64,000 bases of DNA from the NCBI GenBank assembly GCA_964225475.1, contig CAXQOB010000012.1, positions 18,521 through 82,520 of the forward strand. Direction: 5' to 3'. The notes under the pieces were generated by a model, which had not been told where the DNA came from, searched no databases, and saw nothing but the letters and a program-made list of their open reading frames with translations. Positions 816-16,242 of the stretch are shown piece by piece; positions within the stretch are counted from its first letter, which is position 1; each line of letters starts with the position of its first letter. Source of the stretch: Nitrosopumilus sp. GTDB lineage: Bacteria > Planctomycetota > Planctomycetia > Pirellulales > Pirellulaceae. The position numbers and the translations under genes are program-made.

Positions 816-3800
816 TTGTTGTTTTCTGTTGGAAACGCGAACTCGAGGTTTGATTTGATCGGTCATTGGAAACGCGATGTCGTGGCTTGTTTGTGTTTAG
901 CGGCGCTTCACGCGACAGTGTTGACGCACACACGCGCGGATGATTTGAACTCTAATCAGATTCGATTCGATCGAGACATTCAGCCAATCTTTGCAAAGCA
1001 TTGTTTGTTGTGTCACGGTGTCGATGAGGCTGAAGGTGGCCTGCAGTTGCATTCAAGTGATACCGCGATGGCTGCCGCTGATTCAGGTATGCGAGCCATA
1101 GTCCCCGGTAATCTCGATCAGAGTGAGTTGCTCAAGAGGATTGTGTCCGATGAAGTGGATCATCGAATGCCACCTGAGGGCGACCGCCTAACGGAAAGTG
1201 AGGTTCAGCAGTTACGGGATTGGATAGAACAGGGTGCGAATTGGACCGTACATTGGGCCTACGCTCCAATCAGCGAGTCGCCCGTTTCCGACTTGCGCGA
1301 TAACAGCTGGTCCAAGCAGGACATGGACCGTTACGTCCTCGCTCAGTTGGAGCGACAAGGGATTACGCCATCTCCACAAGCGGAAAAAACGACCCTGATC
1401 AAGCGTCTCTATTACGATTTGATTGGCCTGCCTCCAACTCCGGATGAAGTCTCGGACTATCTGAGGGATACCTCCGAGGATGCGTATCCGAGACTGGTTC
1501 AGCGTCTTCTGGCTTCGGATCACTTTGGTGAGCGTTGGGGGCGTCATTGGTTAGATAAGGCTCGATACGCTGATTCAGATGGCTATGAAAAAGATAATCA
1601 TCGAGCGGATGCGTGGAGATATCGCGACTGGGTGATTCAGGCCATTAACGATGATCTGCCATTCGATCAATTTACAATTCAGCAGTTGGCAGGGGATATG
1701 CTCACTGAAGCCAGTGCGGACGATAAGCTCGCGACTGCGTTTCATCGCCAGACTCTAACGAATACGGAAGGTGGTACCGATCGTGAGCAGTGGCGAGTTG
1801 CAGCTGTAATGGATCGTACGGAAACCTTAGGGACGGTTTGGTTGGGGTTGAGTGTTGGGTGTGCGAGGTGTCATTCGCACAAGTATGATCAGATCACTCA
1901 GCAAGAATATTATCAGCTGTATGCTTATTTCAATAACGGCGATGAAGCCAATGCTGACATTCCAAAATCTGCGGAGAGGTACGCCTCGCTGACCCAAGAG
2001 TTGGATTCCGCAAAGGGACTCGTAAATCAGAGGCGAGATGAATTAGTCGAGTCTATCGAAGTTTGGAGTCCTTCGCTCCGTAAGCAGGCATTAGCGATTT
2101 CCGCGGACGAAATCCAAGTCCACGCGTTGGAGAACACTCAAGTTCGAGGTCCGGAGGGAGTCTTGTTTACCGAATTGGACGATGGGTCCTTTCTTGTAAG
2201 CGGAGATAATCCTGATTCTGCAAAGTACACGATTGAAGGGACCACAGACGTAAGCAAAGTCACAGGGATACGACTGGAGGTTTTGCCACATGATTCATTG
2301 AACGCGAAGGGTCCAGGACGGACTGCGCATGGAAATTTTGTGCTCAATGAGGTACGACTGTACGCATCCAGTGAACCAGCATGGACCCCTGATCAGAAGA
2401 AAGTTTTGGCAGATGCTACTGCCGATTTTTCACAGGAGGGTTGGGCGGTTGCTGGTGCGATCGATGGTGTTGAAGGTGTTGGGAAAAGTGGGACGGGATG
2501 GGCAATCTCACCCAAGTTTGGCTCACCGCATACTGCGACCTTCGCACTCGATCAACCGCTGGAGCCGGGTGAAAGTAATCTTCAGATTGTGCTCAATCAA
2601 ACCTACGGTTCTCAGCACACCGTCGGGCGTTTTCGTGTCCACGTTGTCACTGGCCGCCTGCCTGGTACCGGTATGCCTGAGGAGATACGAAGCATTCTGA
2701 TCGACAACAAACGGGATGCAAAGTCAGTGGAGATGTTGGTTGCATATCAGCAAGCTCATGATCCGCCCTCGGCCGAGTTGTCGAAAAAATTGCAAGGCTT
2801 GGAAGAAAAGCTTGCTGCTGAGACAATGAAAGTTCGCGTGATTTCGGAAAGGTCTTCGGGTCGCCGCGAGACCCGTGTGCTTCGTCGTGGCGAATTCAAG
2901 CAACCCGAGGATTTAGTCCAGCCTGCCACGCTCACGACTCTTCCGCCAATACGATCAAGGAATGGAGCTGCTGCTACCGATCGCTTGGATTTGGCGATGT
3001 GGTTGGTCAGCGGCGACAATCCAATTGTTCCTCGTGTTGCGGTGAATCATCTTTGGCATCACCTCTTTGGTTCCGGTATCGTTCCAACGATGAATGATTT
3101 TGGAGTGCGCGGGGACAGCCCTTCTCATCCCGAATTGCTCGACCATCTTGCCGCGAAGTTTATTTCCGAAGGTTGGTCGCGCAAGAAGATGATTGAATAC
3201 ATTGTGAATTCAGCGACCTATCAACAATCATCCTCGCATCGCCCCGAGCTTGTGGATCTGGATCCTCGAAACCGTTGGCTGCATCGACAGAACCGATTTC
3301 GTGTTGAAGCGGAGGTCATGCGAGATATCGCACTTTCGGTGAGTGGTCTGCTGTCGGAAAAAGTCGGGGGGCCTAGCGTCTTTCCTCCAATACCGCCTAG
3401 CGTGACCGATCTGACTTACAACAGTAGCTTTAATTGGAAGACGAGTGCGGGTGAGGATCGTTACCGTCGCGGACTCTACACGTATTTCAAGCGAACTGCG
3501 CCGCATCCAAATCTGATTACATTCGATTGTCCGGATTCGAATGTCTCCAATGTACAGCGCGAGCGTAGTAACACTCCGATCGGAGCATTGGTGACATTGA
3601 ATAATGAGACCTTTGTTGAGGCAGCGCAGGGGATGGCGCGTCTTCTTTTGAACAGGTCTGATTTAAAAACGGACAATGCTCGCCTGCGGTACGCGATGCG
3701 GTTGTGCATCGCGAGAGTGCCCGACTCGGAAGAATTAGCGGACTTTGACGAATTACTGCGGGCTAGTCGCCAGTGGTACAGTTCGCATCCCGAAGAGGCT

Positions 3801-3914
3801 GTGAAGATGATCGGGCAGATGGGAAGTAATTCGGTGGACACGACTGAAAATGCAGCGTGGGTTGCAACCCTGCGAATGATTTTGAATCTGGATGAATTCA
3901 TTACTCGAGAATAG
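816..3914 (+). CDS. Planctomycete cytochrome c + DUF1549 (PSCyt2) + DUF1553 (PSD1) domain protein, exported, with two CxxCH motifs
   Basis: FDRDIQPIFAKHCLLCHG (planctomycete cytochrome c), HWAY, FGERWGRHWLDKARYADSDG, CARCHSHKYD, RVAVNHLWHHLFGSGIV, HPELLDHLA, FDCPD, C-terminal LNLDEFITRE. The true start may lie downstream of 816. Confidence 0.93.
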   Translation: MLFSVGNANSRFDLIGHWKRDVVACLCLAALHATVLTHTRADDLNSNQIRFDRDIQPIFAKHCLLCHGVDEAEGGLQLHSSDTAMAAADSGMRAIVPGNLDQSELLKRIVSDEVDHRMPPEGDRLTESEVQQLRDWIEQGANWTVHWAYAPISESPVSDLRDNSWSKQDMDRYVLAQLERQGITPSPQAEKTTLIKRLYYDLIGLPPTPDEVSDYLRDTSEDAYPRLVQRLLASDHFGERWGRHWLDKARYADSDGYEKDNHRADAWRYRDWVIQAINDDLPFDQFTIQQLAGDMLTEASADDKLATAFHRQTLTNTEGGTDREQWRVAAVMDRTETLGTVWLGLSVGCARCHSHKYDQITQQEYYQLYAYFNNGDEANADIPKSAERYASLTQELDSAKGLVNQRRDELVESIEVWSPSLRKQALAISADEIQVHALENTQVRGPEGVLFTELDDGSFLVSGDNPDSAKYTIEGTTDVSKVTGIRLEVLPHDSLNAKGPGRTAHGNFVLNEVRLYASSEPAWTPDQKKVLADATADFSQEGWAVAGAIDGVEGVGKSGTGWAISPKFGSPHTATFALDQPLEPGESNLQIVLNQTYGSQHTVGRFRVHVVTGRLPGTGMPEEIRSILIDNKRDAKSVEMLVAYQQAHDPPSAELSKKLQGLEEKLAAETMKVRVISERSSGRRETRVLRRGEFKQPEDLVQPATLTTLPPIRSRNGAAATDRLDLAMWLVSGDNPIVPRVAVNHLWHHLFGSGIVPTMNDFGVRGDSPSHPELLDHLAAKFISEGWSRKKMIEYIVNSATYQQSSSHRPELVDLDPRNRWLHRQNRFRVEAEVMRDIALSVSGLLSEKVGGPSVFPPIPPSVTDLTYNSSFNWKTSAGEDRYRRGLYTYFKRTAPHPNLITFDCPDSNVSNVQRERSNTPIGALVTLNNETFVEAAQGMARLLLNRSDLKTDNARLRYAMRLCIARVPDSEELADFDELLRASRQWYSSHPEEAVKMIGQMGSNSVDTTENAAWVATLRMILNLDEFITRE

Positions 3915-3968
3915 ATGGGTTATACGTTTTTCCGAGTACGTTTTGATACTAGTTTTGAATGAGATGAG

Positions 3969-5453
3969 ATGAGACGAGGCATGGATTTTTTTCAAAGACA
4001 ACGTCGAGAGTTTCTTACCACCACCGCAAGCGGTCTCGGTGGAATGGCTTTAGGATCCATGTTGACCGATGATGGAGTTTTGCGTGCGCAAGATGCTGTT
4101 GATGGCACGGAGTTACCAGGCAAGGCACCTCATTTTGAAGCGAAGGCGAAGGCGTGTATTTTTATCTACATGGCAGGGGCCCCCTCTCAATTGGATTTGT
4201 TCGACCCTAAGCCAAAGCTTCAGGAACTGCATGGGCAGAAGTTACCCAAGTCGATCCTTGATAAAGCCCGCTTTGCATTTATCAAACCCGATTCTGCGAC
4301 CCTTATGGGCTCACCGAGGAAGTTCACACCACACGGTGAATGTGGCATGCAGTTTTCGGACTGGTTGCCGAACCTTGGTAGCGTTGCTGACGATCTGTTG
4401 ATGGTTCGTAGTCTTCACAGCGAGGAGTTCAACCACCACCCCGGACAATTGATGATGCAGTGTGGTGTCTCACGTTTTGGCATGCCTGCCATGGGTTCTT
4501 GGATCAACTACGGCCTTGGTAGTGAATCGAAGAACCTGCCCGGCTACGTGGTGCTGACTGCAGGTCGCGGGAGTAGTGGGGGAGCGACACTTTACCAGAG
4601 TGGTTTTTTGCCCTCCTCTTATGGCGGTGTATTATTCCGCAATCAGGGTGAACCCGTCCTGAATTTGACAAATCCCAGCGGACTACCTCCTGAGCTTCAA
4701 AGGGCAGGGCTGGACGCGCTTCGTGCTGCGAATCAGCGGCGTTATCAGGAAGTCCATGATCCCGAGATTGAAAGTCGTATCTCAAGTTATGAGCTTGCCA
4801 ATCGGATGCAGACGGCTGCCCCTGAATTGATTGATCTAAGCAGTGAGTCTCAGCAGACGTTGGACATGTATGGTGTTGGTAGAGAAGAACCGAAGAAGGT
4901 GTGGCGGGGATCGCTGGGGCATTTGAAAACCTATGACACCTTCGCGAGAAATTGCCTGTTGGCTCGTCGAATGGTCCAGCGGGGGGTTCGCTTCATCAAC
5001 ATCATTCATGCATCGTGGGACCAACACAGCGAACTTGACTTTCACTTGAATCATAATGCCGAGTGTGTTGATCAGCCAATTGCCGCCTTGATTAAGGACT
5101 TGAAGCAACGGGGCATGCTCGATTCGACCATGGTGGTATGGGGTAGCGAGTTTGGTCGTACCCCGCTTGGAGAGAATCGTCAGGGACGAGCAGCGAACAC
5201 GGGTCGAGATCACCATCCATTTGCCTACACGATGCTGCTCGCGGGGGGTGGGCTAAAAGGTGGCATGACTTACGGCACGACGGATGAAATTGGTTGGAAC
5301 GTAGAAGAAAACCCGGTTCACATCAATGATCTTCACGCAACGATGTTGCATCAGTTTGGATTGGACCATCTGAAATTAACGTATCGGTTCCAAGGGCGAG
5401 ATTTTCGACTGACTGATGTGGGTGGTAAAGTGATGCGTGATTGGATTGCATAG
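3969..5453 (+). CDS. DUF1501 domain protein (Tat-exported, usual partner of DUF1553 proteins)
   Basis: Twin-arginine RREFLTTTASGLG; AKACIFIYMAGAPSQLDLFDPKP; GSWINYGLGSE; CLLARRMVQRGVRF; WDQH; WGSEFGRTP; GRDHHP; HINDLHATMLHQFGLDH..LTYRFQGRDFRLTDV. Confidence 0.93.
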   Translation: MRRGMDFFQRQRREFLTTTASGLGGMALGSMLTDDGVLRAQDAVDGTELPGKAPHFEAKAKACIFIYMAGAPSQLDLFDPKPKLQELHGQKLPKSILDKARFAFIKPDSATLMGSPRKFTPHGECGMQFSDWLPNLGSVADDLLMVRSLHSEEFNHHPGQLMMQCGVSRFGMPAMGSWINYGLGSESKNLPGYVVLTAGRGSSGGATLYQSGFLPSSYGGVLFRNQGEPVLNLTNPSGLPPELQRAGLDALRAANQRRYQEVHDPEIESRISSYELANRMQTAAPELIDLSSESQQTLDMYGVGREEPKKVWRGSLGHLKTYDTFARNCLLARRMVQRGVRFINIIHASWDQHSELDFHLNHNAECVDQPIAALIKDLKQRGMLDSTMVVWGSEFGRTPLGENRQGRAANTGRDHHPFAYTMLLAGGGLKGGMTYGTTDEIGWNVEENPVHINDLHATMLHQFGLDHLKLTYRFQGRDFRLTDVGGKVMRDWIA

Positions 5454-5628
5454 GAATTGTTCGCCCAAGCTGGCTCTGATCGAGCACTTCTCACCAGCGA
5501 GATGTAGTAAGCTATTGGTCGTCTCGATGTTTCAAATGTCGGCGAAGAGATCACGGTGCCATAGGTTCCTTCTGGGATCGCAGCAGGTGTCTGCGTCATT
5601 CACATAACAATCAAAAGGTTTAGCTGTA

Positions 5629-6825
5629 TTGATGAGGAAACTAGTTATTGCCCAAATGTTTCTGGGGGTCTTGGCCGTCTTGCCGGTTCACGTCGCTCAC
5701 GCAGATGAACAGCAAGTGTTTCGTCTGCTGATCAAAACCATTCGTTCAACGGAGGACACGAGTGTCCAGGTGTCTTTGTTGCAGGGAATCCTTCGTGGGC
5801 TCGAGGGTCGCCGTGATGTCGTTGCACCGGAGTCATGGGGAACTCTCTATGAAAAGTTGAAAGTGAGCCCGGACCCAATCGTCAGGGAGCGAGCAGCGGC
5901 ACTCTCGCAAATTTTCGGTGATCAAGCTGCGGTGGAGCAGGCAATGAAAGCCGTCATGGACGCTCAGCAGCCTGTCGGTCAGCGTCGTGATGCATTGAGT
6001 CGACTGCTGAATCAGCAGAACGAGCAAGCCTCGCAGCTGCTGCAGGACTTACTCGATGACGATGAGATGGCGATGGATGCGATTCGGGGATACGCAATTG
6101 TTGAGAATGCAGATGCACCCACGATTTTGCTCAAACGATACTCATCCTTTGATTCACGGAGTCAACGAGCTGTGGTTGAGACACTTGCGTCTCGAAAGAA
6201 CTATGCCGCTTCGTTGTTGAGTGCAATTGAAACGGGTCAGGTGGCCAAGAGCACCGTGCCTGCTCAGGTGGCACGAACACTCCATGAAATGCTTGGGGAG
6301 TCTTTCACTCGGGTCTTCGGCGAGGTGCGAGAAGTCGCACAGGATCGGAGTCAATTATTGGCGAAGTACAAGGAACTGTGTAATCCTGATGCCGTCGCTG
6401 CTGCGAACGCATCTCGCGGCCGTGCGGTTTATCAGAAAACCTGTGCGGCATGTCACATGCTCTATGGGGAAGGCGGTAAGGTCGGGCCAGACCTCACCGG
6501 ATCAAACCGTGCGAATCTCGACTACATTCTACTGAATAGTGTTGACCCTAGTTTTGATGTTCCAGATGCCTATCGTACTGTTTCGGTGTTGACCGTTGAT
6601 GGTCGGTCGGTCAATGGCGTACTGGCAGAGGAAGATGCAAAGCGGATTGTTCTTAAGACAGCGGAGCAACCACGAGTGGTGATCGCGAAAGAGGATATTG
6701 AAGTAAGGAAAACGTCCCCAAAGTCGATGATGCCTGAGGGGCAGTTAGATCAGATGAAACCACAGGAAGTCATCGATCTGATCAAGTATTTGCGAACAAC
6801 GCAGCAAGTGGAGATGTCAGAATGA
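5629..6825 (+). CDS. Putative heme-binding (TIGR02603-like) c-type cytochrome with N-terminal HEAT-like repeats
   Basis: Signal peptide ending AHA; helical repeats; GRAVYQKTCAACHMLYGEGGKVGPDLTGSNR; ILLNSVDPS; SMMPEG (Met axial ligand). Confidence 0.88.
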   Translation: MMRKLVIAQMFLGVLAVLPVHVAHADEQQVFRLLIKTIRSTEDTSVQVSLLQGILRGLEGRRDVVAPESWGTLYEKLKVSPDPIVRERAAALSQIFGDQAAVEQAMKAVMDAQQPVGQRRDALSRLLNQQNEQASQLLQDLLDDDEMAMDAIRGYAIVENADAPTILLKRYSSFDSRSQRAVVETLASRKNYAASLLSAIETGQVAKSTVPAQVARTLHEMLGESFTRVFGEVREVAQDRSQLLAKYKELCNPDAVAAANASRGRAVYQKTCAACHMLYGEGGKVGPDLTGSNRANLDYILLNSVDPSFDVPDAYRTVSVLTVDGRSVNGVLAEEDAKRIVLKTAEQPRVVIAKEDIEVRKTSPKSMMPEGQLDQMKPQEVIDLIKYLRTTQQVEMSE

Positions 6826-9245
6826 ATATTCGATCCAAGCGACAGCACCGAAAAGCATCCGTTATCGGTTTTGATGGTCCAAGAGGATTCTATCGAAGGT
6901 TGTTCATGCAAAGTGGTTTTCTTGACTGTTCACGAAATCTGGTATCCCTACTCTGCATCGTCCTCGTCATGTCCGCCGCGAATGCGGAGGATGGGCGGAA
7001 CCTGTTGCCAAAAAAGCAACATCGGGACAGTAACGCACCGTTTCTGAGTCCGTCAGAGGCGGTGGCGAAGATGTCGATCCCTGAGGGGTTTGATGTTTCA
7101 GTGTTCGCCTCAGAGCCTGACATTGCCGAACCGATTGCTTTCTGTTTTGATGACCGAGGGCGATTGTGGGTCGCGGAGAATTTTAATTATCAGACGCGAC
7201 GTCAGCACACCGATGACCAAGTCAGTCGTATTCAGATTCTTGAAGACACTGATGGTGATGGTGTTTTCGATAAAAAGAAAACCTTCACAGACAAGCTGAC
7301 TTTTACTTCCGGTATCGCGTGCGGATTTGGCGGAATCTTTGTTGGGTCACCCCCCAACCTAACCTTCATTCCGGATAAAGATGGAGATGATGTTCCAGAT
7401 GGCCCACCCGAGATCTTGCTCGATGGATGGGGTATCAATGACCGTCACGAGACGCTCAATAGTTTTATCTGGGGACCGGATGGTTGGTTGTATGGATGCC
7501 ACGGTGTGTTCACGCATTCAAGAGTAGGTAAGCCAGGTGATCGTGATGCGGATCGTCAATTTATCGATGGAGGTATCTGGCGATATCACCCCGTCCGTGG
7601 AACCTTCGAGATCTTTGCTCGCGGATTCTCTAATCCGTGGGGATTTGATTTCAACGATCATGGACAGGGCTTTGCAACCATGTGTGTGATTCCCCATCTG
7701 TTTCACATCGTTCAAGGTGGAACCTATCACAAACAGAGTCGGCCTCATGTGAATCCCTACGTCTATGATTACATCACGACGATTCGAGATCATACGCACC
7801 TATCAGCGCACGGCGGCGCCCGTTTTTACTTGGCGGATACCTTTCCTGAGCGTTATCGGGACCGTCTATTCATGTGCAATATCCATGAGCATGCCGTGCT
7901 GACAAATTACATGGTGTCCAATGGGTCCAGTTTTATCGGTAAGCATGGAAGTGATTTCATGCCCACCAACGATCTCGCTTGGGTCGGATTCAGCGTGGAA
8001 ATAGGACCTGAGGGTGGAGTCTATCTGTTGGACTGGCATGACCAAGATGTTTGTGGGAATGCGGTTAAATTTCCCAATAGCGGTCGTGTCTATCGAATCA
8101 TGCCGACGGATGCCAAGGTTTCGCAGCGGCCCAATCTTCGAGCGGCGAGCGATGCTGAACTTGTTGCGTATCAAATGCATAGTAATGACTGGTATGTGCG
8201 GCAGGCGCGAACGCTTTTGCATTATCGTGCCGAATCTGGCGAGTTGGAAGATCTTGGTTCGGTGCATGATTCATTAACGGAGATGTTTCATCGAGTCGGC
8301 TCCACGCCCAAAAAATTGCGAGCGATGTGGGCTTTGTATGTCACCGGCGGTCTGGATCGTCAACGTCTGACGGAGTTGCTTGCACACGAGGATGAGTACA
8401 TACGTTCGTGGGCAATTCAGTTCTTGTTGGATGAAAGCACTGTGAATGCTTTTCAGCCGAATTCAGATACCGGAACGTTGCTGGAGAAGGATCTGCTGGG
8501 GCGATTTGCTGCCATGGCGCGAGAGGATACCTCGCAGGTGGTTCGCTTGTACCTTGCCTCCGCCACGCAGCGTCTTGCGTACTCTCAGAGATGGGAAATA
8601 CTGGAGTCGCTGATCTCGCACCCTGAGGATGTAAGCGACAATAATCTACCCAGGATGTACTGGTTTGCTCTTGAACCCATGGTTCCGTCGCATCAGCAGC
8701 AGGCTTTAGAGCTTGTTGTTAAGGGTAAGATTCCGCGTTTGCAGGAGTTCGTGGCGCGAAGGCTTATTACCGGCGACTTGAACCCAGCGGACCTCAATCA
8801 GGTAAGTCGTTCCGCAGCATGGGATAAAACCATTCAGTCATTGATGGCGGGTTTACGCGTCACTGCTGTTGGTGAGGGTGGAGTGTTGAAGCATTCTGAT
8901 TTTCGTAATCAAACCGCAATTCAGACTCATCCGCTCGATCGCAAGACGCCATGTGTGATCGCAAAAAAGCGATTGGTTGTGCCAGAAGATAAGAGCACCA
9001 CCCTGAGACTGAGGGTTTCGCACCATCCGCACGGTGATTGGCAGTTACGTGTTCTTGCAGGAACAGAGGTATTGACGGACCAAATTGTAAGTTCGGCCAC
9101 TGTCGGAAGTGATGAGTGGCTTGATGTATCAATTGACCTATCTCGTTTTGCAGGTCGTCCTATCAACCTATCAATCGAGAACCGGGCCAATGATTGGCGG
9201 AATGAATGGGCCTATTGGAATAAAATTCAGATCGTTTCGGAGTAG
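6822..9245 (+). CDS. PVC-type membrane-bound dehydrogenase-like beta-propeller (TIGR02604/DUF7133-like) with HEAT repeats and an extra C-terminal beta domain; no CxxCH
   Basis: SPSEAVAKMSIPEGFDVSVFASEPDIAEPIAFCFDDRGRLWVAE; DRHETLNSFIWGPDGWLYGCHG; GFSNPWGFDFNDHGQ; GPEGGVYLLDWHD. ATGA overlap with the upstream stop codon (6822-6825). Confidence 0.88.
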   Translation: MNIRSKRQHRKASVIGFDGPRGFYRRLFMQSGFLDCSRNLVSLLCIVLVMSAANAEDGRNLLPKKQHRDSNAPFLSPSEAVAKMSIPEGFDVSVFASEPDIAEPIAFCFDDRGRLWVAENFNYQTRRQHTDDQVSRIQILEDTDGDGVFDKKKTFTDKLTFTSGIACGFGGIFVGSPPNLTFIPDKDGDDVPDGPPEILLDGWGINDRHETLNSFIWGPDGWLYGCHGVFTHSRVGKPGDRDADRQFIDGGIWRYHPVRGTFEIFARGFSNPWGFDFNDHGQGFATMCVIPHLFHIVQGGTYHKQSRPHVNPYVYDYITTIRDHTHLSAHGGARFYLADTFPERYRDRLFMCNIHEHAVLTNYMVSNGSSFIGKHGSDFMPTNDLAWVGFSVEIGPEGGVYLLDWHDQDVCGNAVKFPNSGRVYRIMPTDAKVSQRPNLRAASDAELVAYQMHSNDWYVRQARTLLHYRAESGELEDLGSVHDSLTEMFHRVGSTPKKLRAMWALYVTGGLDRQRLTELLAHEDEYIRSWAIQFLLDESTVNAFQPNSDTGTLLEKDLLGRFAAMAREDTSQVVRLYLASATQRLAYSQRWEILESLISHPEDVSDNNLPRMYWFALEPMVPSHQQQALELVVKGKIPRLQEFVARRLITGDLNPADLNQVSRSAAWDKTIQSLMAGLRVTAVGEGGVLKHSDFRNQTAIQTHPLDRKTPCVIAKKRLVVPEDKSTTLRLRVSHHPHGDWQLRVLAGTEVLTDQIVSSATVGSDEWLDVSIDLSRFAGRPINLSIENRANDWRNEWAYWNKIQIVSE

Positions 9246-9252
9246 AACAACC

Positions 9253-10173
9253 GTGAGAAACTTTTCAATCATTTTCGCGTTGTCATTTTTCCTTGCCTTA
9301 TCGGCGATATTCTCAGTTGAAGCTGCAGCTGCTGATGATGGTGGGGAAAAAAAAGCCAAGGTGGTGTTTATTTCTGGCAAGCCAAGTCACGGTCCCATGG
9401 CTCATGAGCACCGTGCGGGAAACATGATCTTGGCGGATGCTCTGAAGCGATCGGGTCTTGGGGTGGAAACCGCGTTAGTACCTCACCCTGGGTACCCGAA
9501 AGATACATCCATTTTTGACGGAGCATCGACGGTCGTTATTTTTTGCACCGGTCACCAAGGTCACGTGCTTAATCCAAACCTGGATGCATTTGACAAACTG
9601 ATGAAATCCGGTGTAGGGGTCGTTATGATTCACTGGGCGACCGAGGCGGAAAAGGGCAAGCCCGGAGAGAAGTTCCTCGAATGGATGGGTGGTTTCTGTG
9701 ATCTGGATTGGTCGGTGAATCCGCACTGGGCTCCAACTTTTGACTCACTACCCGAACATCCGATTACCAATGGTGTTAAACCATTCAGTGTCCATGATGA
9801 ATGGTATTATCACATGCGATTCGTCGAGGGAATGAAGGGTGTGACTCCTATCCTCTCGGATCTTCCTCCCGAGGAAACGCTTCGTCGCCCAGATGGAGCC
9901 CGTAGTGGTAATCCAGCGGTCCGAAAAGCTGTCGCCCAGGGGCAATCTCAGGTTGTGGCGTGGGCTTATGAACGACCTGATCACGGGCGAGGTTTTGGAT
10001 TCACTGGCGCTCATAATCATGTGAGTTGGCAGGACGAAAACTTTCAGAGAGTCGTTCTAAACGCGATTCTTTGGACTTCGAACGTAGAGGTTCCAAAAGA
10101 GGGTTGTCCCACACCGCAGGTGAGTGACAGCAGAATCAAGGAGAATCTTGATGACAAGAGACCGCGTCGTTGA
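9253..10173 (+). CDS. ThuA-like (class I glutamine amidotransferase-like fold) exported protein
   Basis: GTG at 9253 followed by a signal peptide; KVVFISGKPSHGPMAHEHRAG; HPITNGVKPFSVHDEWYYHMRF; VVAWAYERPDHGRGFGFTGAH. The ORF-track start at 9109 overlaps the upstream gene and is unlikely. Confidence 0.85.
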   Translation: MRNFSIIFALSFFLALSAIFSVEAAAADDGGEKKAKVVFISGKPSHGPMAHEHRAGNMILADALKRSGLGVETALVPHPGYPKDTSIFDGASTVVIFCTGHQGHVLNPNLDAFDKLMKSGVGVVMIHWATEAEKGKPGEKFLEWMGGFCDLDWSVNPHWAPTFDSLPEHPITNGVKPFSVHDEWYYHMRFVEGMKGVTPILSDLPPEETLRRPDGARSGNPAVRKAVAQGQSQVVAWAYERPDHGRGFGFTGAHNHVSWQDENFQRVVLNAILWTSNVEVPKEGCPTPQVSDSRIKENLDDKRPRR

Positions 10174-10364
10174 TCTGCTCTCCGACGTTACGACCTCAAT
10201 AGAATCATTTAGCAGGTCAGTAATGACTTAAGGCGATCACGGATTGATGGTTTGTGCGCGCCTTTCGCCGATTGAGGCCGACTTCATGAAGTGGTTCGGA
10301 GGAACGCATCCGCTCCTCTCTGTTTTTATTTCGACGAATCGGACCGTATTCGGGAAACACGTTA

Positions 10365-11999
10365 ATGGCCGAAATTCAATCAAATCAACGTACTTCCTTA
10401 AGAGCTGTATGGATATCGAGCATGGGCCGAATGTTTACCCCGAAGCTTCTAATCGTAATCGCTTTCTTATGCTTCATCTCAGTCGATGCTGTTGAGGCTG
10501 AAGAGAGGCCTAATGTGATTTTCTTTTTGGTTGACGATTTGGGTTATCGCGACCTCGGCTGCTTTGGCAGCACTTTTTATGAGACACCAGCGATCGACCA
10601 GTTAGCCAAAGAGGGAATGCGTTTCGATAACGCGTATTCCACGTGTCACGTCTGTTCGCCCAGTCGCGCGAGTATCTTGACGGGTAAGTATCCAGCTCGA
10701 ACCAATTTGACGGAATGGCTGGGTGGGAGACCAGAGCGTCAATATGAAAAGCTACATCATGGTGAGAAGGTGACGTCACTGCCTTTGGGCGAGCAGACGT
10801 TGGCAGCCACATTGAAGTCACATGGTTATGCAACTGCGAATTATGGCAAAGCTCATCTGAATCGTGATCCCAAGACCTATGGATTCGATGAGGCCATCAC
10901 CGGGTGGGTGCGGTCTTACTATCATCCATTTTCTCCGGCGTACAGCCAGTCGTTAGCATCAGAACCTGGAGACTATTTTACGGACAAACTAACCGACGCG
11001 GCCTTGGATTTTATCGAGCGGAATCAAGATCGGCCGTTCTTTGTTCATATGGAGCACTTTTCTGTGCATGATCCGATTCAGGGTCGTAAGGATTTGGTTG
11101 AAAAGTATCGACGCAAGCTTGCAAGGTCGGCGGAGCAATCTGGGCCAAGTTTCATCCTCGAAGGAAATCCGGATGGCCCCACCTTAACGGAAAGCGAGAT
11201 GAAGGAGCTCTCAGATAATGATGAGCTTCGGACCCATCAGGAAGCTCGCGTTTGGTGGGTCAAGCAAAAGCAAGACAATGTAGAATTTGCTGCGATGGTG
11301 GAAGCGACTGACCAGAGTTTACATCGTATTCGCCAGAAGCTAACTGAATTGGGTTTGGAGAAAAAAACAATCATTATTTTCACCTCCGACAATGGTGGGA
11401 TGTCTGCCTCGAATCAGTATCGAGGGATTGATCATCCTCGCGAGGTACTGGATTCACGCTACGCCAGTTCAAATCTGCCTTTGCGTGGAGCAAAAGGTTG
11501 GAATTATGAGGGCGGAATACGAGTTCCGCTCATCGTGCATTGGCCAGGAGTTGTTGGGGGAAATACTGAATCTGATGCGATCGTCACAGGGACGGATTAT
11601 TATCCGACACTCTTGCAAATGCTTGACCTACCCATGTTGCCTGATCAACACTGTGACGGTCAAAGTTTCGTGCCAGCGCTCAAGCAGAAACGATATCAGC
11701 GGGGTCCGATTTATTGGCATTTTCCACATTACAGTAACCATGGGTATCAGAGTCCCGGTGGCGCAATTCGTGTAGGTCGATACAAGTTGCTCGATTACTA
11801 TGAGAATGGAACGGTGCAACTATTTGATTTGCTGAATGATGTAGGAGAGACGAATGACCTCTCGAAAACTCAGCCAGAGTTAGCCGCAAGGCTGTTGGGT
11901 CAACTGAATCGGTGGCGTACCGAGGTTGATGCCAAAATGCCCTACCCGAAGACCGAGACGTCGAAACCTGCACCGGGGGCACGTGTCCAGAAAAAGTAA
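10365..11999 (+). CDS. Sulfatase (S1, arylsulfatase-like)
   Basis: RPNVIFFLVDDLG; CSPSRASILTGKYP; GKAHL; SDNGG; PLRGAKGWNYEGGIRVP. Likely start is ATG at 10422 or 10431. Confidence 0.95.
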   Translation: MAEIQSNQRTSLRAVWISSMGRMFTPKLLIVIAFLCFISVDAVEAEERPNVIFFLVDDLGYRDLGCFGSTFYETPAIDQLAKEGMRFDNAYSTCHVCSPSRASILTGKYPARTNLTEWLGGRPERQYEKLHHGEKVTSLPLGEQTLAATLKSHGYATANYGKAHLNRDPKTYGFDEAITGWVRSYYHPFSPAYSQSLASEPGDYFTDKLTDAALDFIERNQDRPFFVHMEHFSVHDPIQGRKDLVEKYRRKLARSAEQSGPSFILEGNPDGPTLTESEMKELSDNDELRTHQEARVWWVKQKQDNVEFAAMVEATDQSLHRIRQKLTELGLEKKTIIIFTSDNGGMSASNQYRGIDHPREVLDSRYASSNLPLRGAKGWNYEGGIRVPLIVHWPGVVGGNTESDAIVTGTDYYPTLLQMLDLPMLPDQHCDGQSFVPALKQKRYQRGPIYWHFPHYSNHGYQSPGGAIRVGRYKLLDYYENGTVQLFDLLNDVGETNDLSKTQPELAARLLGQLNRWRTEVDAKMPYPKTETSKPAPGARVQKK

Positions 12000-12054
12000 T
12001 GTGCGTTAAGTGATTGCCATACTGGTTGGAATCGGATTTGATCGTTGAGTAACC

Positions 12055-14745
12055 ATGAAGGGTGAAGATATTTTTAGGCCTGTTTTTTTACTGAGCATGA
12101 CGTTTTTGTTACGGGTCATTGTGCTGCCCGGCCTGCCCGTTATCTCTGCGGAAACGCAGGAGCTCCAATCACCCAGCAGCGATTTGACCTTGGGCCAAGT
12201 TCGAGACATGGGGCGAGAACGGAGTCGATTTGTAGGTGGGGATGAATCGCGTTCGGACGCGATCGCTACGAATCAAAAGCCGACATCGAATCTAAAGAAG
12301 TATCAAAGTGACGTTCGGTCAATTCTTGTCGAAAGTTGTCAAGACTGTCATGGGCCCGATGATTCTCAGGGGCGACTTCGAATTGATCAGATCGATCCAG
12401 ATTTACTTCAAGGTAAAGATGTCGCTCAGTGGCAAGAGATTTATGCTGCGGTTAGTCACTATGAAATGCCACCACAGGATGATGATGAGCACGTATTAGA
12501 TGAGGTAAAGCGAGGGGTTTTGGTTGACTGGTTGAGTGGTGAGCTGGCAAAAGCGTCAGTGATACAACGCAACAACGGTGTCGCTTCCTCTTTTCGACGA
12601 CTTACGAATTACGAATACAATTATGCTCTTCAGGATCTGCTCGGTCTGAATCATTCGTTGGCCAAAGAGTTACCACCAGAAACAACATCCGAGGAAGGGT
12701 TCAAGAATACCTCCTCGATGTTGCAAATGTCTGCAATGCAGTTTGCGACCTATCGAAAGATTGGATTGGAAGCTTTGCAGCGAGCCGTTGTCGGTGAGGA
12801 TCGACCAGAAACTGTGCGTTACGTTGTGAATATGGAGCAGGAATGGCAAAAAGCATCTGCAGCGACCCCTGACAAAGTTGTTGCGGCTGATAATGAGGCT
12901 TTTCCGAATCAGTTACGGAGATCGCATCTCTGGAACACTGAAACCCAGAGTGCGATACAGTTTTCATCGGGATCATGGAAGCCAGTTCAAGGCGATTCGG
13001 ACCACGCGATCAAGGTTGATTCCGTCGCTATGCTGTCTCTCCCGCGATCCGGAGAGTTGAAAATGAATCTTGATCGATTCTTGCCAGATCTTGGCATCAT
13101 GCGTGTGAGTGTATTGGCCAGTCGGACAACGGATGATCCAAATGAACACGCTGCATTGAGATTCATTTTTAGTGCTCACACGAGCAATAACGCAAACTTT
13201 ACGAATGAAATTAGCGAGCGAGATCTTCCAGTTCATGGTTCCATGGAAAAGCCGCAGTGGATTCATTTCGACATTCCACTTCAAGACATTCAACGCAATC
13301 CGTTTCGAAAGTTGGAGACAACTTTTCCGCGACGTGATGAGTTTTTGCACATTCGCAACATTGCAAATACCAACGGCAAGGACAATTCATTTCGGGTAAT
13401 GATTCACGGTATTGAAATCACGGCACCGTTTTATGATCGTTGGCCACCCAAGACACACACGGATATCTTTTTTGCCAGTGATAACCGTAAAGATGAGCAA
13501 GCTTACGGCGTGGAGGTATTGCAGCGGTTCTTGCAAAGGGTTTGGCGGAGACCCGTTGGGTTGCAGGAAGTTGAACCGTTTATGCAATTGTTCAATGGGT
13601 ATCGCAAGGACTTTGGTCGATTTGAGGACGCGATGGTTGAGGTCCTTGCAACTGCTTTGGCAACACCAGAGTTCCTCTATTTGCGTCAACATGCGGAAGG
13701 TCACCGGGATGAGAATCAGTTGCAGACCGATCAATTTGATTTTGCCTCCAAGCTGGCTGCGTTTCTCTGGTCGAGTCAACCTGATTCTGAACTCCTTAAT
13801 GTTGCGGAGAAAGGCAAGTTAACGGATCCTCGGGTTTTGGATCAGCAAATCTCTCGCATGCTCACCGACGTTAAGTCGGAGCGACTTAGCCAGCACTTCG
13901 TTTCGCAGTGGCTAGGGCTTGAGGGACTGGATGCAACGGTTCACGTGAAGGATCAAGAATTACTGAAGGCGATGCGATCGGAACCAATCGCGCTGTTCAG
14001 TGAGGTCCTTCGGGAAAACCGTAGTGTCGTGGATTTTCTCCATGCGGATTATGTGATGGTGAATGAACGGCTAGCACGCCATTACGGAATTCGTGATGTC
14101 TATGGTCCTGAATTTCAAAAAGTGAATGTGCAGGATTCCCAAAATCGAGGTGGGGTTTTGACCAGTGCTGCGGTGTTGGCAATGAATTCGGATGGAAAGG
14201 AGTCTCATCCACTGAAACGCGGTGTATGGATGTTGGAACGTATTCTGCATGATCCACCACCACCACCACCACCCAATGTTCCTGAGGTTGATCTCACGGA
14301 TCCAAGAATCTTGCAAATGACATTGAAGGAGCGGCTTGCTGATCATCGAAATCAATCGGCTTGTAAGTCATGTCACGCACGCATTGATCCTTGGGGGATC
14401 GCTTTTGAGCAGTACGATGCATTGGGTGCCTTTCGAACGAAATTAGGGAATCAGCCGGTGGACGCAAAGTCGATGCTGTTTAACCGCCAGATTTTAGATG
14501 GGATGGACGGGTTGAAGCGTTATTTGCTATCTGAAAGGCAGGATCAGTTTGCCGGTGCTATGGTTCATAAAATGCTAAGCTACGCCCTGGGACGTCAATT
14601 GACCTTCGGGGATCATGTTGAAATTGAGCGGATCACCCGAGAATTCCGTGCGAGTGAGGATCGGCTAGGGGATCTTGTGCGTTTGATTGTCAGGAGTGAA
14701 TTGTTTGCGAAATTGGACAAAGGCGATTCAATTGGTTTGAAGTAA
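12055..14745 (+). CDS. DUF1587/DUF1595/DUF1592/DUF1588/DUF1585 multi-domain protein with two CxxCH motifs
   Basis: CQDCHG; EMPP; RRLTNYEYNYALQDLLG; FLQRVWRRP; PEFLY; LAAFLWSSQPD; FVSQWL; RGGVLT; SHPLKRGVWMLERIL.DPPPPPPPNVP; CKSCHARIDPWG; KMLSYALGR. Confidence 0.93.
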   Translation: MKGEDIFRPVFLLSMTFLLRVIVLPGLPVISAETQELQSPSSDLTLGQVRDMGRERSRFVGGDESRSDAIATNQKPTSNLKKYQSDVRSILVESCQDCHGPDDSQGRLRIDQIDPDLLQGKDVAQWQEIYAAVSHYEMPPQDDDEHVLDEVKRGVLVDWLSGELAKASVIQRNNGVASSFRRLTNYEYNYALQDLLGLNHSLAKELPPETTSEEGFKNTSSMLQMSAMQFATYRKIGLEALQRAVVGEDRPETVRYVVNMEQEWQKASAATPDKVVAADNEAFPNQLRRSHLWNTETQSAIQFSSGSWKPVQGDSDHAIKVDSVAMLSLPRSGELKMNLDRFLPDLGIMRVSVLASRTTDDPNEHAALRFIFSAHTSNNANFTNEISERDLPVHGSMEKPQWIHFDIPLQDIQRNPFRKLETTFPRRDEFLHIRNIANTNGKDNSFRVMIHGIEITAPFYDRWPPKTHTDIFFASDNRKDEQAYGVEVLQRFLQRVWRRPVGLQEVEPFMQLFNGYRKDFGRFEDAMVEVLATALATPEFLYLRQHAEGHRDENQLQTDQFDFASKLAAFLWSSQPDSELLNVAEKGKLTDPRVLDQQISRMLTDVKSERLSQHFVSQWLGLEGLDATVHVKDQELLKAMRSEPIALFSEVLRENRSVVDFLHADYVMVNERLARHYGIRDVYGPEFQKVNVQDSQNRGGVLTSAAVLAMNSDGKESHPLKRGVWMLERILHDPPPPPPPNVPEVDLTDPRILQMTLKERLADHRNQSACKSCHARIDPWGIAFEQYDALGAFRTKLGNQPVDAKSMLFNRQILDGMDGLKRYLLSERQDQFAGAMVHKMLSYALGRQLTFGDHVEIERITREFRASEDRLGDLVRLIVRSELFAKLDKGDSIGLK

Positions 14746-14826
14746 ACTAGAGATGGAACCGTGTAAGCCACAAAGCTGGCTGCGGGTAACGATTTGGGTT
14801 TCGTCGAGAATCAGCTCGGTGCGAAT

Positions 14827-16242
14827 ATGCTGGAGGAGCAAGAGGTGTCACAAAAGAAAGCCAACTTGAATCGACGTCATTTCCTGCAGGGAACGGGCGT
14901 GGCACTGAGTCTTCCTTGGTTTGAGGCATTAGCGACAGAGCCTGACGCAATCAAACAGACGCCAAGACGTTTTCTGAGCGTCTATCATCCCGATGGTGTC
15001 GGCTTGCCTTTAAAATCAGATCCAGCATGGAATGATTGGAGTTGGTTTCCAAGAGGTGGTGAGCAGGATTTTGAATTAACAAAAGTCCTCGATGTGCTCG
15101 AACCGCTTCGAGGCGAAATAACAATCTACTCCGGCCTTTCTCATCCGGCCGCGAGGCGAGTTCATGGCCACTCCAACGCGGATCAATATCTCACAGGTGC
15201 AGACGTCGGAGGCCACGGTCCTTACAAGAATTCAGTTTCGTTGGATCAGGTCATTGCTGAATATGCTGGTGAATCAACACGGCATGCTTCTCTGGTCATG
15301 TCCACCAATGGCGGTGTTGGCGGTCCACGTGGGGCCCAGACTCAGTCATTCAATCGTGAAGGGCGTCCTATCCCAGCGATGAATCGTCCGAAGCAGATCT
15401 TCGATATGCTCTTTGTGACAAGTGGTAAACAAGCGGCTGAGAAGCTATCACGCAGCAAAAGCGCACTTGATCTTTTAATTGAGAACTCGAAGTCATTCAG
15501 CCGTAAGCTTTCCAGTGCTGATCGTGCAACCTTGCAGCAGTATCTCGATTCCGTTCGAGATACGGAAGTCAAGCTGGTCAAAGCTCAGAAATGGCTCGAC
15601 ACTCCGGTCCCAACGGTGGACACAAGCCGACTAGTGCTTGATGCAGAACCTAAAGAGGCACGACTCTATTTCCAGACAATGTATGAGTTGATCTACCTTG
15701 CCTTCATGAGTGATTCAACTCGAGTCGCAACCTTCCAGTTGGGTCGAGAGAATGGTGAGGGTCCGCACGATCTGCTATCCATGGCGGTTGGGCTCGGCGG
15801 TGCACATGGTCTCACTCATTCAGTCAAAAAGCCTGACGGTTGGAAGAATCTCGGTACCTACAATCGCTACCAAGCTGAGGAATTCGGATGCTTTGTTCAG
15901 CGGCTAAAAGATACGCAAGAGCCGAATGGAAATGGTACCTTGCTGGATAACACTTTTGCGATGCATGGCTCCGCGTCAAGCAGTTTCCATCTTTCACGGA
16001 ACTATCCCATTATCTCTGCCGGTGGTAAGAATCTTGGTTTCCAAAATGGACGTTATCTGAAATTTGGTCGCGGTAATGAAGATAATCAGGCGGGAGCGGG
16101 GATCGATACCGATGCTGGCTGGAGAGGTGAGATACAGGCTGAAGAACTTCCTTTGGCTCACCTTTTTGTCACCATCTTGCAAAGGATGGGTGTTGAGGCG
16201 AATTCATTCGCCGGATACACGGGCACGTTAGACCGCGTGTAA
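14827..16242 (+). CDS. DUF1552 (HXXSHH-type) Tat-exported protein, partner of the DUF1592 protein
   Basis: LNRRHFLQGTGVALSLPWFEAL; SVSLDQVIAE; DRATLQQYLDSVRDTE; FMSDSTRVATF; GTLLDNT; H..RNYPII.AGG; LAHLFVTILQRMGV. The ORF track starts at 14794. Confidence 0.92.
   Translation: MLEEQEVSQKKANLNRRHFLQGTGVALSLPWFEALATEPDAIKQTPRRFLSVYHPDGVGLPLKSDPAWNDWSWFPRGGEQDFELTKVLDVLEPLRGEITIYSGLSHPAARRVHGHSNADQYLTGADVGGHGPYKNSVSLDQVIAEYAGESTRHASLVMSTNGGVGGPRGAQTQSFNREGRPIPAMNRPKQIFDMLFVTSGKQAAEKLSRSKSALDLLIENSKSFSRKLSSADRATLQQYLDSVRDTEVKLVKAQKWLDTPVPTVDTSRLVLDAEPKEARLYFQTMYELIYLAFMSDSTRVATFQLGRENGEGPHDLLSMAVGLGGAHGLTHSVKKPDGWKNLGTYNRYQAEEFGCFVQRLKDTQEPNGNGTLLDNTFAMHGSASSSFHLSRNYPIISAGGKNLGFQNGRYLKFGRGNEDNQAGAGIDTDAGWRGEIQAEELPLAHLFVTILQRMGVEANSFAGYTGTLDRV

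Follow-up and report, generated by a model that had tools for sequence, protein, structure and literature searches.

The window analysed, a 64,000-nucleotide stretch of contig CAXQOB010000012.1 (positions 18,521 to 82,520 of the forward strand) from assembly GCA_964225475.1, assigned to the family Pirellulaceae, contains at its positions 5629-10173 three co-oriented genes for exported proteins: P1, encoding a cytochrome c with HEAT repeats; P2, encoding a beta-propeller protein; and P3, encoding a ThuA-domain protein. These genes form a conserved operon, which rather probably encodes a PVC-type propeller-HEAT-cytochrome c enzyme with separately exported parts, of one split origin, responsible for the oxidation of glycosides or glycans via the pair P2-P1.

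Open reading frames (ORFs) and domain mapping with hidden Markov models (HMMs) agree with the coordinates of the initial annotation of this DNA, in which three genes in reversed order (cytochrome, propeller, ThuA) were described. Its account of an upstream HEAT-cytochrome gene, with its own signal peptide and coupled through ATGA to the propeller gene, of a propeller gene lacking CxxCH, and of a free-standing exported ThuA gene 7 bp past the propeller gene was likewise borne out. Sec-type signal peptides were read directly from the translations of all three proteins, that of P2 ending in LVSLLCIVLVMSAANA before ED, and that of P3 being MRNFSIIFALSFFLALSAIFSVEA, followed by AA. The only CxxCH motif in the three proteins is CAACH of P1; P2 and P3 contain none. 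P1 comprises 398 amino acids from TTG 5629 or 397 from ATG 5632, the latter being the probable start. An alternative start of P2, ATG 6906 (Met29), was set aside, because the start overlapping the P1 stop codon is conserved in orthologues, while the length of the N-terminal region varies. The frame of P3 is open from 9109 to its end at 10173; GTG 9253, separated by 7 nt from the stop codon of P2, is most likely its start, by analogy with orthologues, which start just past the P2 stop.

The C-terminal part of P1 (residues 259-390) belongs to TIGR02603 (117.1 bits, cut-off 68.15) and is preceded by weak matches to HEAT_2; P1 also matches Cytochrom_C in Pfam, and its cytochrome domain is similar to PDB entry 7zs0 (E 4e-15). 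Residues C272, C275, H276, M368 and P369 do not vary among the 74 aligned sequences, which comprise orthologues, fused homologues and paralogues; accordingly, the haem c of P1 is predicted from sequence to be His/Met-ligated. Signal peptides were also found at the start of P1 orthologues and of the two other split cytochromes of the same genome.

P2 is represented by four regions in the AlphaFold2 model (pLDDT 84, pTM 0.74): a disordered N-terminal region with the signal peptide, a propeller (76-430), 14 HEAT-like helices (444-671) and a beta-sandwich (679-806). Residues 89-429 belong to TIGR02604 (325.6 bits, cut-off 122.2), and residues 76-413 to DUF7133 (E 1.2e-64). In alignments with fused homologues, helices 444-671 cover the first half of their helical linker.

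That propeller, HEAT repeats and cytochrome are normally parts of one polypeptide, as the initial annotation assumed, is confirmed by the same genome, where 22 of 25 above-cut-off TIGR02603 domains end frames of 898-1749 amino acids, mostly together with TIGR02604, and three are located in short frames. Along the single chain of fused homologues, the region corresponding to P2 66-685 comes first, followed by that corresponding to P1 15-396, so that P2 444-671 and P1 ~30-250 represent consecutive halves of one linker. In separate trees of the P2 part and of the P1 part, the split proteins are monophyletic (support 100 and 99, respectively), and their fused sister group is the same in both, namely, DUF6807-DUF7133-HEAT-cytochrome proteins of 1098-1379 amino acids, which, in this sample, were found in genomes of the same genus that lack the split pair. 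The concordance of the two trees, including their common fused sister group, gives good support to a single old fission accompanied by reordering, which would have cut the linker mid-way. The natural fission of a normally fused protein suggested earlier thus agrees with the end-to-end mapping on fused homologues, the concordance of the half-trees and the gene overlap retained in 31 of 32 loci.

The alignments of P2 and P1 on fused homologues overlap by ~25-45 residues, which is probably alignment run-on; tandem duplication with reciprocal truncation was considered and rejected, as the profiles of P1 26-110 and P2 600-700 are dissimilar (probability 2.6%). The fused sister group gave no sign of positional orthology: within ~7 kb of the group-A genes in genomes G021, G013 and G019, there are no common neighbours.

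Orthologues of P1 were found in 16 of 25 genomes of the same GTDB genus (56-73% identity, frames of ~400-456 amino acids), as well as in 30 species-level genomes labelled Rubripirellula, Mariniblastus, Blastopirellula or Pirellulaceae, and metagenomes contain more than 120 clusters of P1 at >=60% identity. Among ~40 related loci, the propeller gene follows the cytochrome gene in every one with downstream sequence, and the two genes share four nucleotides at the P1 stop and P2 start in 31 of 32 distinct related loci, namely, ATGA in 26 and GTGA in five. In divergent members with P1 identity of 39-44%, the gene order and the carbohydrate-binding module (CBM)-like end of P2 are unchanged. Nonsynonymous divergence (dN) amounts to 0.12-0.32 and synonymous sites have reached saturation, which indicates purifying selection on the genes of the operon. 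The arrangement is not peculiar to this genome; the operon is conserved within a large clade of marine relatives. As to the possibility that the split order is already common and described, it is indeed common in nature, but no description of split or reordered forms was found in the literature on the family, on Lac161_ORF7 or on ThuA/3-keto systems.

The operon is also present in the assembly GCA_013036045.1, labelled Alienimonas chondri, a cultured species, as genes for a cytochrome (404 amino acids), a DUF7133 protein (789 amino acids) and a ThuA protein (294 amino acids), followed by a sulfatase gene. This locus (L054, contig WTPX01000075.1), from a member of Planctomycetales, nests among sequences of Pirellulaceae in the trees, indicating horizontal transfer or a misassigned contig. 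In the divergent locus L099 (4086-8450), three abutting genes encode exported proteins: DUF6807 (302 amino acids), HEAT-cytochrome (389 amino acids) and DUF7133-HEAT-CBM (759 amino acids); DUF6807, here encoded by a separate gene, forms the N-terminal domain in the fused sister proteins.

P3 belongs to the ThuA family (PF06283, 67.6 bits, cut-off 33.4) and is similar to the ThuA-like PDB entry 1t0b (E 0.002). Among 33 scorable loci, not including that of the window, which is itself of the separate-gene kind, ThuA is encoded by a separate gene for an exported protein in 15, forms an in-frame C-terminal extension of P2 in nine and is absent from nine; a few loci, for example, L013 and L032, were counted twice from one genome, so independent loci are slightly fewer. 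The fusions are single frames of 1060-1278 amino acids in sister lineages (L033, L038-L041, L043, L045, L049 and L052, for example, L052:7047-10367), in which a short linker stands in place of the ThuA signal peptide. At least four changes of the ThuA state are required by the tree. From the repeated fusion of ThuA to P2 and its repeated loss, there is good reason to conclude that it acts together with P2 yet is dispensable. Consequently, of the three-subunit periplasmic redox complex proposed in the initial annotation, the link between ThuA and P2 is retained, owing to the nine in-frame fusions, while an obligate three-part set is not, as ThuA is absent from nine of the 33 loci and present only in some lineages. 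A gene for ThuB (GFO_IDH_MocA domain) was not found beside ThuA among the neighbours at 816 to 14745, a range ending before the next ORF at 14794-16242.

The closest folds to the P2 propeller in PDB, according to Foldseek, are soluble glucose/aldose dehydrogenases dependent on pyrroloquinoline quinone (PQQ), represented by 2ism, 8re0/5min/1c9u, 3a9g and 7cdy (E 1e-9 to 1e-7; template-modelling (TM) score 0.5-0.68 on the target). The entries 2ism, 1c9u/5min, 3a9g and 7cdy are six-bladed propellers. A search of PDB with the P2 sequence gave no match, and the family profile matched only alphaRep/HEAT designs (E 5e-10) and, weakly, YliI of E. coli. In hhalign, the similarity of the family profile to YliI (probability 90%, E 1.7e-6) is confined to P2 255-425, the C-terminal half of the propeller, leaving out the N-terminal half, which in soluble glucose dehydrogenases carries the catalytic His.

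The C-terminal beta-sandwich of P2, a domain not mentioned in the initial annotation, has a pLDDT of 93 when folded alone. Foldseek matches include modules of the CBM6/35/4/22 families, among them alginate- and porphyran-binding CBMs (8zqf, 5fui, 8xmz), 8j3x and laminarin-associated CBMs (E ~1e-4, TM score 0.55-0.65). The model thus suggests a CBM6/35-like beta-sandwich, which may bind sugars or, equally, a metal through its invariant His-rich motifs. Pfam gave no match to this domain, and its HMM detected no further copy in this genome. The motifs FRNxxAxQTHP, SHHPHGDW and NEWAYW are invariant in it, and the domain is retained in the divergent members L097 and L099. P2 is therefore not the fused protein minus its cytochrome: the CBM-like domain stands in for the second half of the HEAT region and the cytochrome. 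Histidine-rich invariant motifs, namely, SHHPHGDW and QTHP in the CBM-like domain (8856-9239) and PSHGPMxHEHRAGN at the start of the ThuA subfamily (9253-9420), may be metal sites.

A sulfatase gene was found at most ~260 nt downstream in 15 of the 24 related loci with enough sequence, and enrichment of sulfatases beside the operon is likely. The strand of this downstream gene, same or opposite, varies between loci, as does the subfamily of the encoded sulfatase.

The best guess as to the function of the operon is a periplasmic cytochrome c-linked glycoside or glycan dehydrogenase. The presence of a haem c with invariant ligands, always fused or coupled to a propeller resembling sugar dehydrogenases, suggests oxidation of a substrate with transfer of electrons to cytochrome c; the CBM-like module, the downstream sulfatase, ThuA and the fusions of relatives with 3-keto-disaccharide hydrolase suggest that glycosides or glycans are the substrate class, possibly oxidized via keto-sugars. 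P2 would be the catalytic subunit, in which a propeller similar to that of soluble glucose dehydrogenase (sGDH) would be kept near the glycan by the C-terminal CBM-like module and would oxidize a glycoside or sugar in the periplasm. Electrons would pass from P2 to the putative His/Met-ligated haem of P1, which could form a physical complex with P2, docking through the complementary half of the HEAT region and feeding the respiratory chain. ThuA would be an optional accessory module acting on or beside P2, and the neighbouring sulfatases would prepare sulfated algal glycans.

A number of observations weigh against this reading. The sequence similarity to sGDH spans only half of the P2 propeller, and the motif RNPxG of sGDH and YliI (RNPQG in YliI) is aligned with SNPWG in P2, Arg being replaced by Ser, which argues against the use of PQQ. 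Neither PqqE above the cut-off nor PqqC was found in the genome, which is 94.7% complete, although the PqqC control was also without matches, and the absence is thus unproven. External PQQ is also used by E. coli. Accordingly, given the Ser in place of the RNPxG Arg and the lack of detected pqq genes, PQQ as the cofactor of P2 is doubtful. Furthermore, 156 sulfatase-like ORFs are present in this genome, and the related loci are not independent samples; ThuA, missing from about a quarter of the loci, is non-essential. Finally, the sole biochemical evidence for the family, obtained for the fused protein Lac161_ORF7, is the hydrolysis of lactose, not oxidation (PMC5342196).

This last result is the basis of an alternative in which P2 is a non-redox beta-propeller glycoside hydrolase, as put forward for Lac161_ORF7 and also by Naumoff and Dedysh, with the cytochrome being incidental, for instance, a sensor, a stabilizer or a component of another pathway. 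Purified Lac161_ORF7, which contains TIGR02604, HEAT and TIGR02603, hydrolysed lactose with a Km of 1.8 mM (PMC5342196); the family is listed among putative beta-propeller glycoside hydrolases, conservation of the PQQ site is not evident, and a CBM-like module in the vicinity of sulfatases suits a glycan-degrading enzyme equally well. Such a hydrolase is nevertheless unlikely. Hundreds of lineages combine the propeller, by fusion or by translational coupling, with a haem c module whose ligands never vary, for which it is difficult to account unless electrons are transferred. The closest folds to the P2 propeller are those of dehydrogenases and not glycosidases, and the recurrent fusions with 3-keto-disaccharide hydrolase suggest that the reported hydrolysis could be oxidation followed by cleavage. 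It is also possible, with a low probability, that P1 and P2 are co-regulated and form no stable complex, P1 being a freely diffusing periplasmic electron carrier that serves several enzymes. Stand-alone HEAT-cytochromes of ~400 amino acids dominate the nearest 150 representative clusters, many of them have no propeller neighbour (L021, L022, L081-L084, L092, P0130 and P0137), and one is encoded after a DUF6288-HEAT protein. Within the clade, however, P1 and P2 always occur together, 31 of 32 loci retain the 4-nt overlap, sub-clades are shared by both trees, and the HEAT regions of P1 and P2 match neighbouring halves of a single linker in fused proteins.

Decay of a fused gene, or an artefactual split through misassembly or frameshift in a metagenome-assembled genome, might be suspected, as the window originates from a draft genome of 233 contigs and other split loci, L089 in the cytochrome and L091 in the propeller, look frameshifted. 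This explanation is highly improbable and was rejected, since the parts have signal peptides of their own, more than 40 loci from independent assemblies, an isolate among them, have all three parts intact, dN is low with saturated synonymous divergence (dS), and family-invariant residues are retained; moreover, a frameshift cannot yield the arrangement, because the order of genes is reversed. The cytochrome-linked dehydrogenase remains preferred. In a narrower and more speculative version of it, which we regard as possible but doubtful, P2 with P1 would be a PQQ-independent cytochrome c-linked glycoside dehydrogenase starting the oxidative (keto-sugar) cleavage of algal glycans in the periplasm of planctomycetes, with ThuA, DUF6807 and 3-keto-disaccharide hydrolase as interchangeable downstream modules. 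Were this version true, the published "beta-galactosidase" activity of Lac161_ORF7 would represent oxidation followed by cleavage, and the two-gene form would be a minimal natural version of a large class of respiratory glycan-oxidizing PVC enzymes.

The operon is a conserved variant, undescribed in the literature found, of a known but uncharacterized family, and not a new kind of system. PVC-type heme-binding CxxCH proteins (TIGR02604, "Piru_Ver_Nterm", and TIGR02603; DUF7133), among which Lac161_ORF7 (AGW45552) is the only studied member (PMC5342196), are exported and have the same propeller, HEAT linker and haem domain. In contrast to them, the defining domains are here encoded by two genes, the cytochrome first, so that TIGR02603 is not in the polypeptide of the propeller; the linker is cut mid-way, P2 ends in a CBM-like domain, and ThuA has a gene of its own, the third, in contrast to its place as an N-terminal domain in the ThuA-carrying paralogue of the same genome on contig C35.

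Soluble PQQ dehydrogenases (sGDH of A. calcoaceticus, 1c9u; YliI/Asd of E. coli, 2g8s; the T. thermophilus enzyme, 2ism; family GSDH), which provide the best folds for the P2 propeller and are likewise periplasmic, differ from P1-P2 in having no dedicated cytochrome, HEAT or CBM modules, and their sequence likeness to P2 is partial. A similar combination of three modules is known in the pyranose dehydrogenase of the fungus Coprinopsis cinerea, a single chain of a b-type cytochrome (AA8), a PQQ propeller (AA12) and CBM1. The logic of an sGDH-like propeller, a cytochrome and a carbohydrate-binding module is shared with it, while in the operon, the modules are distributed over two genes, the CBM belongs to another family, and the sequences are unrelated.

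ThuAB and LacABC have been described as cytochrome c-dependent 3-ketoglycoside dehydrogenases, and BT2157 as a 3-keto-disaccharide hydrolase (PMC8121099). The operon shares with these systems the ThuA domain and, as proposed here, a cytochrome c-linked electron flow, and domains of 3-keto-disaccharide hydrolase (BT2157, PF06439) are fused to relatives of both P1 and P2. Unlike ThuAB and LacABC, the operon lacks ThuB (Gfo/Idh/MocA), a flavin adenine dinucleotide (FAD) subunit and PF06439, and the candidate dehydrogenase is the propeller.

Lactose hydrolysis by Lac161_ORF7, the only assay in a large family, leaves the haem unexplained. Owing to the natural split, haem-free P2 and the small cytochrome P1 can be expressed and assayed separately, and their reconstitution would be a direct test of redox chemistry in the family. 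The operon is annotated in the A. chondri assembly, so work on physiology and transcripts may be possible. The evolutionary record ties the family to keto-sugar metabolism.

Approximately 25 paralogues of the TIGR02604/DUF7133-HEAT-cytochrome c type are present in this genome, and 20 copies of the family were reported for a published genome of Gemmataceae (PMC7397252). A search with P1 alone gave ~17,000 representative clusters; among 51 genomes across the phylum, short frames hold ~10% of TIGR02603 domains. A search of 1.8 billion representative proteins yielded 813 matches at E 1e-30 or better, and most of the best 150 of these 813 are stand-alone HEAT-cytochrome proteins of ~390-460 amino acids. 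Eight longer representatives were scanned, and in five of them, a HEAT-cytochrome is fused to a 3-keto-disaccharide hydrolase domain. Outside the clade, four propeller-then-cytochrome pairs, at least ten cytochromes without a nearby propeller and no cytochrome-then-propeller pair were detected. The reversed order was thus found only in this one large clade, while stand-alone HEAT-cytochromes are common generally. In view of one fission, repeated fusion and loss of ThuA, and the fusion of stand-alone modules to 3-keto-disaccharide hydrolase, the HEAT-cytochrome half behaves like an electron-transfer module that is autonomous and can be exchanged.

Two other split versions in the same genome have the normal order: ThuA-NPCBM-DUF7133-HEAT (1127 amino acids) with HEAT-cytochrome (377 amino acids) at G000:C35:18051-22628, and GDSL-DUF7133-HEAT (895 amino acids) with a cytochrome protein of 645 amino acids at G000:C71:2246-7121; the cytochrome parts of both have signal peptides. 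Fusions of HEAT-cytochrome with PF06439, with or without FG-GAP repeats, are represented by P0167, P0233, P0189, P0230 and P0248, and long fused relatives by, for example, L072:1-5706 (FG-GAP-DUF7133-HEAT-cytochrome-PF06439). At L096:3685-7173, a stand-alone HEAT-cytochrome (390 amino acids) is encoded 12 nt past a DUF6288-HEAT protein of 767 amino acids, from which the cytochrome module may also serve catalytic partners other than propellers. Genome G033, from another family, encodes a DUF7133-HEAT protein of 626 amino acids that stops near the same boundary (L076:2391-4268) and, on another contig, an unlinked HEAT-cytochrome of 417 amino acids (L021:1702-2952); this pair may be an independent, unlinked split. 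In two propeller-then-cytochrome loci, L089:5834-8897 (cytochrome) and L091:3970-7107 (propeller), one gene extends across two frames, probably because of frameshifts or assembly errors.

Features of the operon and of the adjacent sulfatase gene, with positions in the window
Feature	Position	Strand	Basis
P1, exported HEAT-repeat and mono-haem cytochrome c subunit	5629..6825	+	ORF, TIGR02603, Cytochrom_C
P1 signal peptide, MMRKLVIAQMFLGVLAVLPVHVAHA, followed by DE	5629..5703	+	Translation; Sec-type
CAACH haem-attachment motif, P1 residues 272-276	6442..6456	+	Invariant in alignment
Axial Met-Pro (predicted ligand), P1 residues 368-369	6730-6735	+	Invariant in alignment
ATGA, P1 stop codon overlapping P2 start codon	6822..6825	+	Sequence
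P2, exported propeller, HEAT and CBM-like protein, 807 amino acids, no haem motif	6822..9245	+	ORF, TIGR02604, DUF7133
P2 beta-propeller, residues 76-430	7047..8111	+	DUF7133, fold matches
P2 first HEAT-like helical half, residues ~444-671	8151..8834	+	Model, profile match
P2 C-terminal CBM-like beta-jelly-roll (predicted), residues ~679-806	8856..9239	+	Domain model, Foldseek
P3, exported ThuA-domain protein, 306 amino acids from GTG 9253	9253..10173	+	ThuA PF06283
Sulfatase gene, associated, not proven part of the operon	10365..11999	+	Sulfatase and SGSH_C domains

The domain scan of the neighbourhood from 816 to 14745 revealed genes of PSCyt/PSD and DUF1501 proteins, the triad P1-P2-P3, the sulfatase and a DUF1592-type protein. 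A scan of 5300-12300 for promoters and terminators gave counts no better than chance. A DUF1553/DUF1501 gene pair accompanies the operon in the closest relatives; the upstream DUF1501 protein (window 3969-5453) is 88-93% identical to its counterparts in L019 and L023-L026, and the operon proteins there are only 70-89% identical.

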